NCBI GenBank assembly: GCA_026394835.1
Contig: JAPLZW010000048.1
Location: 1 to 37,543 of the forward strand
Direction of reading: 5' to 3'
Length of the DNA: 37,543 nucleotides
From: Candidatus Wolfebacteria bacterium
GTDB lineage: Bacteria; Patescibacteriota; Minisyncoccia; UBA6257; UBA9933
Position 1 is the stretch's first letter; each line of letters opens with the position of its first letter. A model generated the notes under the pieces. It worked only from the letters and a program-made list of their open reading frames with translations. It was not told the origin of the DNA and ran no database searches. Shown here piece by piece: positions 1 through 3,090 of this stretch. A program made the translations under genes and the position numbers.

Positions 1-895
1 ATAAATCTCTTAACTGTTGATTTTCGCAGAAGCCGCCTGTTGCCGCGAATAACATACCCCAGAAAATCGATGCCCCGATCTATGGGAAAAATTTCGGCTT
101 TTTTCGGATGCATTTCGAGTTTTAATCTATCGCACAGAAAAATTTTTATGAGTTCTTTGACTTCGTGAAGGTGTTTTTTATCCAATCCTAAAATCAAAAA
201 ATCGTCCATATATCGGATATAATATTTTTCTTTCAGGATCCGCTTCACAAAGTGATCAAGTTCGTTCAAATATATATTAGCGAAAAGTTGCGAAGTAAGA
301 TTGCCTATGGGAATACCATACGGATTGCTTCTGATTATCTCGCGGAGCAACCATAAAATATCCTCGTCCGGAATTTTCCGGCAAAGCATTTCAAAAAGTA
401 TTTCGTGGTCTATATTATTGAAATATTTGGAAATATCGCACTTCAGGCAATAAATTTCGGGCGCGAGCTCTCTCTCTCTCTCTCTCTCTCTCTCTCTCTC
501 TCTCTCTCTCTCGACAACAAGCTCAAAGATTTTATGAAATTTTCAAGGCGGATTATCGCCCCATGCGTTCCCTTGCTCTTTCGGCAAGCATAGGAATCAT
601 ACACAAATCCCTTATCAAATATCGGCTCGATTATATTACATAAAGCGTGGTGTACCACGCGGTCGCGGAACGGCGCGGCCATGATGACACGCTTCTTGGA
701 ATCAATAACGACAAACTCGCGATAGCCGCCGTGTTTATATGTTTTATCCGATAATTCCCGCCGCAAGGCGAGCAAATTTTCTTCCAACTTATAGCCGAAT
801 TTCAAAATGGAACTGCGATAGCGTTTGCATTTTCTGGCGTCGAGATAAGCCTGATAAAGGTTTTGAAAATCAATGACTGAATTAAAATCACTCAT
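1..895 (-). CDS. DGR-type reverse transcriptase. The 3' end runs off the window. The frame is broken inside a (GA)22 tract: N-terminal ORF 443..895, remainder open in another frame across 1..470.
   Basis: The ORF 443..895 carries RT motifs FRDRVVHHAL and SYACRKSKGTHGAI. My translation of the minus strand of 1..470 has no stops: ELAPEIYCLKCDISKYFNNIDHEIL..GIPIGNLTSQLFANIYLNELD..YIRYMDDFLILG..HPKKAEIFPIDRGIDFLGYVIRGN. It contains the YMDD catalytic box and the IGxxxSQ motif characteristic of DGR RTs. It sits next to avd and a TR/VR pair. Confidence 0.9.
468..512. repeat. Perfect (CT)22C dinucleotide microsatellite, (GA)n on the coding strand, inside the RT gene
   Basis: Read directly: ctc at 468..470, then an uninterrupted tc run to 512. 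It encodes (Glu-Arg)n in every frame. The upstream and downstream RT frames differ by one nucleotide across it. Confidence 0.97.
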
Positions 896-913
896 TGGAT
901 AAAAATCCTATGG

Positions 914-945
914 CCCCGCGCCAGGACAAAAGCAATGGCGCGGGG
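914..945 (-). other. Perfect 10-bp stem hairpin in the TR-to-RT spacer, a candidate structured element of the DGR RNA
   Basis: ccccgcgcca (914..923) and tggcgcgggg (936..945) are exact reverse complements around a 12-nt loop. The hairpin lies between the TR 3' end (1074) and the RT start (895). Confidence 0.6.
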
Positions 946-1073
946 GAACGGATTTGTATTTTCCCCGTCTGGAGAAAAGCCCAAACAAAGAAGGAATAAA
1001 ATCTGGGGTTTTGTTAAGCGCGCTCATTATTCCAAAAATGGAAATAAAGATTCTGGCGCGTAAAAGTCACTGA

Positions 1074-1189
1074 AACGGGCGCATCGAAACCCGACATTGT
1101 TGTTCGCATTGGTCGTATTTCAATTCAAGTTCAGCGCAAACGCGCCGGCATTCGAACCATTGTTCCAATTGCCGCCGCGAATGAAGACG
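1074..1189 (-). repeat. DGR template repeat (TR)
   Basis: Aligns without gaps to 1641..1756 at an offset of 567. All 20 mismatches are T on the plus strand of TR, which is A in the coding sense. 20 of the 27 such positions differ. Read in the VR frame, TR is rich in AAT/AAC codons and contains an in-frame TGA, so it is non-coding. Confidence 0.93.
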
Positions 1190-1248
1190 CCCTGTTTTAC
1201 TGATTTTATCCCTCCAACATTTTTTATTGATAGCCAATGCTGGTTAAT

Positions 1249-1596
1249 TTAAAATTTTTTCCGCCAGGCCCCCAACAATCTCCCTATCTCAATAAGCTTC
1301 TCCGAAGCGGCTTTATAATGCGGAAAACTGATTCCTCCTTCTTTATTGTATTCATGCCCGGCCCTTATCAAGATTTTTATCATCTCTAAAATTGTCAAGC
1401 ACTCGACGATTTCCTTTTCTCTGCCGTCTCTCGACATATTGGATCTTATAATTTGTTTTAAAAGATTTACGGTTTCGTTTTCAAGCTGTATCCCAAGGCT
1501 GTATTTATGAACTTTGGCAAGATGCCTGACAACTGTTTTCTGCCAGACGAAAAAATCATAAGTTTTCTGAAACGCAATCAAATCTTCAATGGCCAT
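1249..1596 (-). CDS. avd: DGR accessory variability determinant (Avd), a small four-helix-bundle protein
   Basis: 115-aa basic helical ORF lying between the target gene and TR, the canonical Avd position and size. The sequence style (YDFFVW..., LLKQIIRSN, LIEIGRLLGAWRKK) resembles Avd and 23S-rRNA-IVS-like four-helix-bundle proteins. Confidence 0.8.
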   Translation of the reverse strand: MAIEDLIAFQKTYDFFVWQKTVVRHLAKVHKYSLGIQLENETVNLLKQIIRSNMSRDGREKEIVECLTILEMIKILIRAGHEYNKEGGISFPHYKAASEKLIEIGRLLGAWRKKF

Positions 1597-1638
1597 TTTA
1601 ATTGACGTTAGATTTTAGATTAAATTAACAAAACCCCT

Positions 1639-3090
1639 TCAACGGGCGCAACGAAACCCGACACCGCTGCTCGCACTGGCCGCACCCCAAACCAAGTTCA
1701 GCGCAAACGCGCCGGCAACCGAACCATCGCTCCAAAGGCCGCCGCGAAAGAAGACGGTCGTCCCCTGATTGGCTCCGGTGCCGTAGGTGTAGACCCGCCC
1801 TACGCCCTGATTGGAGTTCCACGAAGTGTTGGAGGGACCGACATTGGCCTGCGCCACATCGGCGCTCCACGCGGAGATGTATGGCGTAAGGGAACTGCCA
1901 TACTGACCCCAGTTCCAGTTTGCTGCGCCATCGGAACGGGCAGGCAGAGCCATAGTGGTCGTAAGGTCGCCCGCGTTATTCACGCTCCTTTGGACGTGCT
2001 GCCAGACGTTGCCCGCGAAATCCCACACGACCGAGCCGTTTGAAAGCGTAAGCGTTCTTCGCTGGTTGCCGCCCTGATTCGTTTCACCCGCATAGCCGTT
2101 TGAGTCATTAAGGTCGGCTGTCAAGGCGTAAGCCGGAACGTTGTCGTTGTGGCCGGAATACATATATCCGGAACCAAGGGCTCCACCCGACCAATTCCCG
2201 GAAACCTGCTCGGCGTTTCTTGCGATTGTCATATATTCGTCATTCGTCAAAAGGTGCGCGCCCAAGGACTGGCAGTAAGTGAGAGCGGTATTGTGGCTGA
2301 TGTAGGTGATGGGATAGCCGTCCGGAGTGGAAGCGATATATTTGCCGTTTGCCGAGGTGCAGGGAGCGCTGGAATCGTAGTAAGTGTGGTAGCCGCTGTC
2401 GGGCGAGTTTAAGGGCGTATTATTTGAGCCCTGGACGCACTTCGCGTCATATTTCATCACCCAGAAATCAGACGTGCCGAAAGCGCCGTTGCCCGGAACT
2501 TTAACCCAGCCCGAAGGGAAAACCGGGCTTCCCAAAGACATATCCGTTCCCGCCTCAAAAGCCTGGGAAGCGGTGCCGCCGTCCAGCCTGGCTTTTGATT
2601 GATATTTGTCGGACTCAAGAACCGCGAGGACTTTCCAGCTTCCGCCCGGAATATATTCGTAGTAATTGTATGTGGATGTCGCGTTTATGGGGTCAACCGG
2701 CAGTTTTTCCAATGGCGCGCCATAGGAGACCAAGGTGAAATTCAGCGGTATCCAGCCGGTGCCGTTTATATTCCGGAGAGTGGAACTTGTGACGCAGACG
2801 TAAGTCCAGCCATAAGGCGGAGTTGGCAGACCCAAGTCCGAACAATTGGTTTGGTTAGATGGGATGGAAACGTAAATCGTATTCACTGTCCCAAGATTTG
2901 TCTGGCCCGAAGACTGATAAACTGCCAAAGCTTTGTTCAGAGTCGCCAAATCAGCCATGCGGTTGCTATCCCGAGACTGCTTTATGAGTTCCAGGGGATT
3001 CAAAGTCACAACCGCGACTGTGGCAAGGACGGCGAGAATGCCTATCACGATGAGAAGCTCGATTAAAGTAAAGGATAATTCCCTGTTCAT
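1639..3090 (-). CDS. DGR target protein: type IV pilin-like N-terminus fused to a C-terminal FGE-sulfatase/C-type-lectin-fold domain that carries the VR
   Basis: The N-terminus MNRELS/FTLIELLIVIGILAVLATVAVV matches the prepilin cleavage/methylation motif, with Glu at +5. It is followed by a pilin-style helix (LIKQSRDSNRMADLATLNKAL). The C-terminal half has the FGE/CLec signature (ALTYCQSLGAHLLTNDEYMTIA ... RGGLW ... GFRCAR). Confidence 0.88.
   Translation of the reverse strand: MNRELSFTLIELLIVIGILAVLATVAVVTLNPLELIKQSRDSNRMADLATLNKALAVYQSSGQTNLGTVNTIYVSIPSNQTNCSDLGLPTPPYGWTYVCVTSSTLRNINGTGWIPLNFTLVSYGAPLEKLPVDPINATSTYNYYEYIPGGSWKVLAVLESDKYQSKARLDGGTASQAFEAGTDMSLGSPVFPSGWVKVPGNGAFGTSDFWVMKYDAKCVQGSNNTPLNSPDSGYHTYYDSSAPCTSANGKYIASTPDGYPITYISHNTALTYCQSLGAHLLTNDEYMTIARNAEQVSGNWSGGALGSGYMYSGHNDNVPAYALTADLNDSNGYAGETNQGGNQRRTLTLSNGSVVWDFAGNVWQHVQRSVNNAGDLTTTMALPARSDGAANWNWGQYGSSLTPYISAWSADVAQANVGPSNTSWNSNQGVGRVYTYGTGANQGTTVFFRGGLWSDGSVAGAFALNLVWGAASASSGVGFRCAR
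1641..1756 (-). repeat. DGR variable repeat (VR) at the 3' end of the target gene
   Basis: Counterpart of TR. Encodes ..VFFRGGLWSDGSVAGAFALNLVWGAASASSGVGFRCAR*. TR Asn codons correspond to L, S, D, V, V, G, S, S, S and G in VR. Both copies share the 3' block GGGTTTCG(A/T)TGCGCCCGTT and diverge just past the stop codon. Confidence 0.93.

Follow-up and report, generated by a model that had tools for sequence, protein, structure and literature searches.

Organization of the locus

We analyzed a 37,543-nt stretch of DNA from Candidatus Wolfebacteria (henceforth "the window"), at one end of which lies a diversity-generating retroelement (DGR) with a reverse transcriptase (RT) gene that is interrupted by a long dinucleotide repeat. 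All parts of the element are encoded on the minus strand, in the order: target gene (1639..3090), accessory gene avd (1249..1596), template repeat (TR, 1074..1189), a 178-nt spacer (896..1073) and the RT gene, which begins at position 895. The variable region (VR, 1641..1756) comprises the final 38 codons of the target gene and extends one base into its stop codon. As the window coincides with a whole contig (37,543 bp) of a metagenome-assembled genome (MAG), the RT gene runs off the contig end. A first-pass annotation, made from the sequence alone, had described these parts as a "complete" cassette. Its coordinates for the target and avd open reading frames (ORFs) and its spacer length were confirmed, but its rendering of the RT as one gene (895..1) must be abandoned, as the ORF that starts at 895 stops before the contig end and the palm half of the enzyme lies in another frame. 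The epithet "complete" must go with it, since the RT is thrown out of frame at a (GA)22 tract and cut by the contig end.

The TR and the VR align over 116 nt without gaps, with 20 mismatches, every one of them at an adenine of the TR. The TR contains 27 adenines, and the 20 that are changed in the VR include 14 A to G, five A to T and one A to C replacements; if 20 mismatches were placed at random over 116 positions, the probability that all of them would hit the 27 A sites is 6.3e-17. In the reading frame of the VR, 25 of the 27 adenines occupy codon positions 1 or 2, chiefly in AAY codons, and the variable positions of the VR, like the adenine positions of the TR, coincide with the unconserved columns in the C-terminal consensus of the target family, ...VFxRGGxWxxGSxAGAFALxLxWxxGxTxxxVGFRCAR. 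The homology ends abruptly on both sides: the last 10 nt of the TR and the VR are identical and the sequences beyond them are unrelated, while a repeat search that extended the match to 127 nt did so by including 11 poorly matching bases. All these elements of the first-pass annotation, namely the ungapped alignment with its count of 20 changed adenines out of 27, the translations of both repeats and the sharp ends of homology, were reproduced exactly upon recomputation. The 20 adenine-only differences are direct evidence of past activity of the element. Differences confined to adenines are also found in relatives that share the target-avd-TR-RT order (17/17 in L073, 10/10 in L091, 10/10 in L101 and 22/22 in L104). 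Together with Avd, the RT, the fold of the target and a conserved structured spacer RNA, the adenine-only divergence bears out both the assignment to the DGR class and the inferred past mutagenic retrohoming; the locus is a genuine DGR, ordinary in this respect for genomes of the Candidate Phyla Radiation (CPR).

It had also been proposed to look for additional copies of the VR. In the whole 37.5-kb contig, searched on both strands with the full TR and with its 40-nt sub-windows while ignoring the A positions, there are no VR-like copies besides the known TR and VR. The VR sequence itself does not differ among four independent Logan assemblies that have the Avd sequence in common, which is consistent with the RT being switched off. 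Two other Logan contigs start one base past site 1651, the last one templated by an A; a branch in the assembly graph may be the cause, and we take this as a hint only.

The TR contains an in-frame TGA (1120..1122), which is aligned to the VR codon TGG (1687..1689) for a Trp residue that is the family consensus. Unmutated retrohoming would thus shorten the target by 15 residues. We rejected a recoding of this TGA according to genetic code 25, since the conserved ...GFRCAR at the end of the target and of its homologues is followed by a stop codon, which in the window is itself TGA. In the relative L072 (4165-4303 and 3569-3707), the TR with the same TGA has passed it on to the VR, and the target is truncated, with the stop 17 codons early.

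The target protein

The target gene encodes a protein of 483 amino acids (aa) (MCX6702631.1), annotated by NCBI as "type II secretion system protein". Its N-terminus (residues 1-26) carries a prepilin-type motif, in which MNRELS precedes the predicted cleavage site and FTLIELL follows it, with Glu at position +5 and then a hydrophobic helix; its C-terminus is an FGE-sulfatase/C-type-lectin domain that ends with ...VGFRCAR. Both assignments find support in Pfam (N_methyl, 1.7e-5, 24.6 bits with the cut-off at 21.2; FGE-sulfatase, 3.9e-6), and the NCBIfam prepilin model TIGR02532 scores 18.4 against its cut-off of 16.3; the scores for specific pilin equivalogs fall far under their cut-offs. The AlphaFold model, built from a 61-sequence alignment, has a predicted local distance difference test (pLDDT) score of 90.9 and shows a long N-terminal helix (residues 9-60) and a beta-rich middle domain. 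The best PDB matches of the model according to Foldseek are the DGR variable protein TaqVP (5vf4), formylglycine-generating enzymes (FGE) and Mtd. The model thus places the VR in the predicted ligand-binding C-type-lectin fold. The target family has 977 homologues, and the best 120 of these 977 are all full-length and share the same architecture.

Some peculiarities of the target should be mentioned. The residue that precedes the predicted prepilin cleavage site (residue 6, 3070..3072) is Ser, which is also found in the family consensus SFTLIELL, rather than the near-universal Gly; the corresponding residue in relatives is Gly (L073, L090) or Ala (L091). A contig of 3,768 bp from a MAG of Candidatus Wolfebacteria encodes a partial protein of 246 aa (P0002, MCX6702374.1) that shares >90% identity with the N-terminal half of the target; as judged from sequence, it may be a second paralogue of the target or else a variant of it in another strain.

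Avd and the spacer RNA

The avd gene encodes a protein of 115 aa (MCX6702630.1) that matches the Pfam family bAvd (PF22296) with an E-value of 1.6e-15, above the cut-off. The NCBIfam model DivGenRetAVD gives an E-value of 2.5e-15, but its score of 56.7 bits is below the curated cut-off of 80. The spacer between the TR and the RT is a structured non-coding RNA segment according to both folding and conservation: its predicted free energy is -60.6 kcal/mol (z = -3.78), none of 200 shuffled sequences was as stable, and 8 relatives share the motif ATTCCTTC...GGGAAAATA and a long hairpin, with compensatory changes in 5 base pairs. Neither the spacer nor the TR region has a match in Rfam at the gathering or E <= 1 thresholds. 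We infer that the spacer is the counterpart of the DGR "Sp" region, which primes the synthesis of complementary DNA (cDNA).

The reverse transcriptase gene is interrupted by a (GA)22 tract

The RT gene consists of three segments. The N-terminal part (513..895), which extends from the initiator Met to the repeat and corresponds to the fingers, matches the N-terminal region of group-II-type RTs and was aligned to residues 11-123 of the Bordetella enzyme bRT. It is followed by a simple sequence repeat, (GA)22 (469..512), situated between the KGTH motif and motif A (YCLKCDISKYF). The remaining segment (3..468), with the palm and the start of the thumb, contains YCLKCDISKYF and the DGR-clade motifs IGxxxSQ (here IGNLTSQ) and YxDD (here YMDD), is cut by the contig end, was aligned to residues 132-279 of bRT, and is encoded in a frame different from that of the N-terminal part. 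The palm half matches the Pfam family RVT_1 (1.7e-15). As assembled, the ORF starting at 895 codes for 150 aa and stops at 443..445, whereas the removal of one GA unit or the addition of two restores a continuous RT of 297 aa, for which the best homologue of known structure is bRT (8ub7_A, 2e-55), followed by group II intron RTs (3e-15).

The tract is 100% perfect and is the sole dinucleotide repeat in the window. Whatever the frame, the tract encodes (Glu-Arg)n; the frame downstream depends on its length, and here an intact RT requires n to be a multiple of 3. With 22 units the catalytic half is shifted out of frame, and the RT gene is therefore OFF in the assembly; because the gene is moreover cut by the contig end, the element as assembled yields no functional RT. 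Production of the RT as two polypeptides is unlikely, since the frame of the C-terminal part offers no ATG, GTG or TTG codon ahead of motif A.

A further Logan contig (L003 from ERR15302166, ~960-1188) is identical to the window through avd, the TR and the spacer, and diverges within the RT (~82% identity, from window position 689 downward). Its RT lacks the GA tract, reads GTHRAIIRLEK followed by a stop codon, and has a thumb-like segment, RRRYEAMAKDGRLPEQFVHNALISW, in another frame. Judging from its sequence, L003 may hold an RT allele that has lost its palm domain, or else be a chimeric assembly.

Repeat tracts in related reverse transcriptases

We searched for relatives in genomes, using the repaired RT as the query and one genome per GTDB species, and in metagenomes, using a pattern that required (GA)>=6 with the coding motif YCLKCDIS within 31 nt downstream and was neutral with respect to frame. 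The closest relatives in the genomes are contigs of Patescibacteria. A (GA)n tract at the same site of the RT, between KGTH and YCLKCDIS, was found at 6 loci from genomes and 23 from metagenomes. Two of the genome loci are in frame (L007, n = 24; L077, n = 18) and four are out of frame (L057, n = 23; L059, n = 16; L072, n = 27; and L073, n = 12 with an interruption). The frame could be assessed for 26 distinct loci, with n from 6 to 30 (median 16), of which 5 are in frame and 21 out of frame; the phases 0, 1 and 2 are represented by 5, 8 and 13 loci, a distribution not different from uniform. Programmed frameshifting at a fixed recoding site was considered and discarded, as the frame offset varies among the loci in these proportions.

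As far as the contigs reach, neither half of the RT contains an additional stop codon or frameshift at any of the tract loci. Most loci have both halves complete; the N-terminal half (Met to GTH) then mostly comprises ~106-112 aa and the C-terminal half (YCLK to the stop) mostly ~196-214 aa, with a few longer. The ratio of nonsynonymous to synonymous differences (pN/pS) in the two halves is ~0.32, with the synonymous sites saturated between lineages, and the value is the same for pairs in which both alleles are OFF. Two comparisons reveal length polymorphism on identical backgrounds, in relatives and not in the strain of the window itself: L094, in frame with n = 13, and L099, out of frame with n = 14, come from different metagenomes (Ga0265294 and Ga0172377) and have flanks that are 100% identical over 499 nt, and L097 (n of at least 11) and L106 (n = 9) likewise differ in length between identical flanks.

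Among 80 species-representative genomes, which form an unbiased sample, frameshifted RTs were found in none of the 74 without a repeat vs 4 of the 6 with a repeat (Fisher P = 9.5e-6). In a neighbour-joining tree, most of the tract-bearing RTs fall into one clade, which also has a few tractless members, and several tract-bearing lineages are scattered elsewhere. In other lineages, the same loop of the RT harbours different types of repeats, namely G13 (L110, L111), G9 (L113) and (AC)9AT(AC)6 (L112), each of which splits the RT. The breadth of the phenomenon is illustrated by a protein search with the N-terminal half, in which the best 120 matches listed are all truncated N-terminal fragments, 68 with (Glu-Arg) repeats, 35 with Gly runs and one with (Thr-His), and many of these fragments end in recognizable out-of-frame tails. 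This search shows breadth only, and we rejected it as a measure of the ratio of ON to OFF alleles: a full-length in-frame RT (L100, identical to P0391) is present in the collection and yet is not listed, which indicates a bias of the search towards short proteins. A search against 50%-representative proteins was too coarse for the same purpose, as it mixes full-length and truncated proteins.

In some relatives the leader of the target gene contains a further (GA)n or (AG)n tract, just upstream of FTLIELL (L073:2735-2764, L091:7217-7246 and L090:1516-1531, with 15, 15 and 8 units, respectively). L073 and L090 have this tract in frame with an upstream ATG, L091 out of frame; given its position, the target itself may be phase-variable in some relatives. 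The target gene of the window has no (GA)n tract in its leader. Other observations concern the composition of individual loci. In L094, ~2 kb downstream of the first RT, there is a second N-terminal RT fragment with its own (GA)14 (2100-2287), cut by the contig end, which may belong to a tandem second DGR. In the poly-G lineages a small GIY-YIG gene adjoins avd, on the side of the RT in L111 (1-2579) and on the side of the target in L113 (1-2660). The target of L111, at least 1835 aa long, has a match to an intein-splicing domain and a weak match to FGE-sulfatase.

A proposed model of repeat-gated diversification

The anatomy of the element, the frameshift, the conserved position of the tract, the length polymorphism among relatives and the intact ORFs on both sides of the repeat can all be read directly from the contigs. 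The features expected of a contingency locus are present in this family: perfect repeats at one site, polymorphism on identical backgrounds, representation of all phases, absence of other lesions, purifying selection, and convergence of three repeat types. In addition, some relatives have (GA)n in the leader of the pilin-like target, and contingency loci are classically found in genes for surface proteins. We consider that we are dealing with a chromosomal DGR of a CPR bacterium that targets a prepilin-like C-type-lectin protein and in which the expression of the RT is gated by a slippage-prone repeat, and we assign to this reading a probability of roughly 0.6.

The proposed mechanism follows the Bordetella model. 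An RNA extending over the TR and the structured spacer would be reverse-transcribed by the RT with Avd, with misincorporation opposite the adenines of the template, and the cDNA would replace the VR and could recode up to ~16 codons for residues on that face of the C-type-lectin domain which binds the ligand. The diversified domain would form the C-terminus of a prepilin-like protein that is presumably displayed on a pilus. The (GA)22 tract in the expanded fingers loop would act as the contingency switch, set to OFF in this assembly: slipped-strand mispairing would alter the number of units and thereby turn the RT, and hence the diversification, heritably on (n being a multiple of 3) or off. 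Most cells would keep a fixed VR, and a minority could restart mutagenesis. We infer that such switching occurs within populations and that it is maintained by selection.

For the family, we lean slightly towards a broader proposal, according to which one family of CPR DGRs, mainly of the Paceibacteria/Parcubacteria type, has evolved a two-tier evolvability device. Convergent (GA)n, poly-G or (AC)n repeats in the fingers loop of the RT would heritably switch the diversification, some members would in addition switch the target by means of the (GA)n tract in its leader, and most cells would present a frozen receptor-binding variant, with rare switchers reopening the search.

Several observations weigh against repeat-gated switching. 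The in-frame fraction of 19% is not above chance and fits equally well a free drift of the tract combined with rescue at the RNA level. No in-frame allele of the exact strain of the window was seen; the Logan contig L001 reaches the tract and breaks inside it. Both the tract length and the state of the VR in the source strain are known from assembled contigs alone, and an error of one unit, due to the assembly or to stutter in the polymerase chain reaction, is possible in a 44-nt repeat of a single contig. The RT lacks ~50 residues at the C-terminus in comparison with its relatives, as these lie off the contig end. The in-frame TGA in the TR could also indicate that selection is relaxed. Finally, the 3' end of the VR shows neither a hairpin nor an asymmetry similar to the initiation of mutagenic homing (IMH) site (z = +0.74 for the DNA fold of the VR end plus 60 nt), and there is no significant candidate for a terminator or hairpin after the VR; the IMH and the accompanying hairpin or cruciform at the VR 3' end were defined in BPP-1 and are not universal among DGRs.

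Alternative explanations

In the main rival to heritable switching, the repeats act at the level of RNA or translation: RNA polymerase or the ribosome would slip on the tract, whether (GA)n, poly-G or (AC)n, a small share of the transcripts from any allele would give rise to full-length RT, and the tract would be a non-heritable attenuator that limits the amount of RT. We regard this as unlikely to be the whole explanation, even though the three phases are nearly equal in number and in-frame alleles are not enriched, as if the genomic phase hardly mattered, and both halves remain under purifying selection in out-of-frame alleles. Poly-G and poly-A runs, as found at the same site, are classical substrates of transcriptional slippage, exemplified by poly(A) rescue in endosymbionts, but we know of no established case of efficient slippage on repeats of two nucleotides. 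Besides, the identity of the VR across the four samples speaks against continuous activity of the RT here. The differences in tract length between identical backgrounds arise at the level of DNA, and switching would therefore be heritable in any case; the two mechanisms can coexist.

Simple decay seems to us distinctly improbable. According to this scenario, the fingers loop tolerates insertions, the repeats have grown neutrally, the out-of-frame alleles are recent pseudogenes, and the element in the window is a relic. The predominance of out-of-frame alleles (21/26) would be in line with it, as would the TGA at the conserved Trp codon of the TR, copied in L072 to the VR, and the RT variant of L003, which apparently lacks the whole palm domain. 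However, the 21 out-of-frame genes contain no secondary stop codon or frameshift in either half in spite of saturated synonymous divergence, and it is this absence of secondary lesions that disfavours simple decay. Furthermore, the repeats are perfect, whereas unselected repeats gain interruptions, three repeat types converge on one loop, and none of the 74 repeat-free RTs is frameshifted.

Very improbable is the remaining explanation, that the frameshift is an assembly artefact and that an ordinary active DGR with an intact RT has a true tract of 21 or 24 units: length calls in dinucleotide repeats are error-prone and short-read graphs do break in the tract, with L001 stopping, and L092 and L097 starting, within their repeats, but 44 nt is well inside the read length and the large k-mers (k141 in the contig names), and to explain the family one would have to assume errors, always at this repeat, in ~80% of independent assemblies, which stem from many projects and many assemblers, so that such an error is possible for this one contig and not for the family.

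Genomic context

The genes that flank the DGR are of the housekeeping type (ROK kinase, GH1, class I tRNA synthetase, SHMT, FolD and RecA among the ten genes checked), and the pattern of the tract plus the motif has no match in the viral contigs of IMG/VR. We therefore conclude that the element is chromosomal and reject a viral origin. A XerC/XerD-like tyrosine recombinase, with a Phage_integrase domain and a SAM-like N-terminal domain, is encoded ~9 kb from the DGR (11997..12887, minus strand); besides it, no phage-like gene is present among the ten genes checked. The class I aminoacyl-tRNA synthetase (8298..11894, minus strand; 1198 aa) comprises tRNA-synt_1, Anticodon_1 and a DUF5915 tail, and has a His_Phos_1 domain at residues 523-693, inside the span of the tRNA-synt_1 model (27-518 and a second stretch). 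Short arrays of heptamers (TCTTAAT, TTCTTTA, TCTTAAA or the complement AGATTTA), with 4-6 copies each, are dispersed across the contig in both orientations, at 3320-3350, 8667-8706, 8808-8839, 11084-11116, 14714-14743, 14998-15026, 23094-23125 and 24688-24716.

Comparison with known systems and implications

The DGR of the Bordetella phage BPP-1 (mtd-avd-TR-brt) shares with the Wolfebacteria element the order of target, avd, TR, spacer and RT, the adenine-specific mutagenesis and the position of the VR at the C-terminus of a C-type-lectin fold. However, the Wolfebacteria element resides in the chromosome of a CPR bacterium rather than in a phage, its target is a prepilin-like protein instead of a tail fibre, there is no hairpin after the VR, and the RT is interrupted by the repeat, the loop between KGTH and motif A comprising ~28 aa with the (Glu-Arg) repeat as compared to ~8 aa in bRT. 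As regards the target, its predicted structure is matched best by TaqVP from Thermus aquaticus, with its FGE fold (Foldseek E = 5e-9, probability 1.00), in agreement with the Pfam assignment to FGE-sulfatase; the sequence identity is 18%, though, the TM-scores are modest (0.32-0.41), and the target described here has in addition the pilin helix and the beta-rich middle domain. With type IV pilins and type II secretion pseudopilins it shares FTLIELL, Glu at +5 and the hydrophobic N-terminal helix, but it differs from them in having Ser at -1 instead of the usual Gly and, with 483 aa and a C-type-lectin head, it is far larger than major pilins.

The tract itself resembles the classical contingency loci, such as pilC and opa of Neisseria, the mod "phasevarions" of Haemophilus and Helicobacter, and the poly-G genes of Campylobacter, in that a perfect repeat with a unit length that is not a multiple of 3 lies in a coding region, its length varies among near-identical strains and sets the frame, and the ORF is intact on both sides, as comparison across contigs shows. 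The difference is that the gene that would be switched here is not a surface or modification gene but the RT of a targeted hypermutation system, so that one mutable element would gate another.

Paul et al. (2017, Nature Microbiology) reportedly surveyed the DGRs of CPR and DPANN genomes, and the targets of CPR DGRs are mostly uncharacterized in the published surveys. The surveyed CPR DGRs are similar to the element in the window in belonging to the same host group, in being compact and in containing Avd; it is the repeat in the RT gene that sets this locus apart from a routine CPR DGR. DGRs are abundant in Patescibacteria, with RTs that cluster together, and a G-type pilin domain carrying the VR is listed only as rare (PMC11661182). 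In the analysis of the "CPR set" by Wu et al. 2018 (PMC5758913), the terms "slippage" and "frameshift" are used only for indels between the TR and the VR. In the literature on DGRs covered by our searches we found no account of a repeat or a frameshift in the RT gene, although an earlier mention is not fully excluded.

To our knowledge, no natural system other than DGRs carries out targeted hypermutation of proteins in prokaryotes. Good variants are destroyed when retrohoming goes uncontrolled, and the way in which the activity of DGRs is restrained is poorly understood. If the reading proposed here is true, a stochastic switch of the RT based on a simple repeat would provide a simple answer to this problem that can be read directly from genomes. 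It would also explain why many RTs of CPR DGRs are annotated as fragments or pseudogenes and are consequently overlooked or thrown out by DGR finders for which the RT must be intact. The hypothesis is testable with existing metagenomes, by comparison of the spectra of tract lengths with the diversity at the A sites of the VR. We know of no described contingency locus in CPR bacteria, and as far as we could find this would be the first instance of the classical contingency-locus logic in the Candidate Phyla Radiation. The switch would be attached to a pilin-like adhesin, which is a prime candidate for mediating host attachment in CPR episymbionts.

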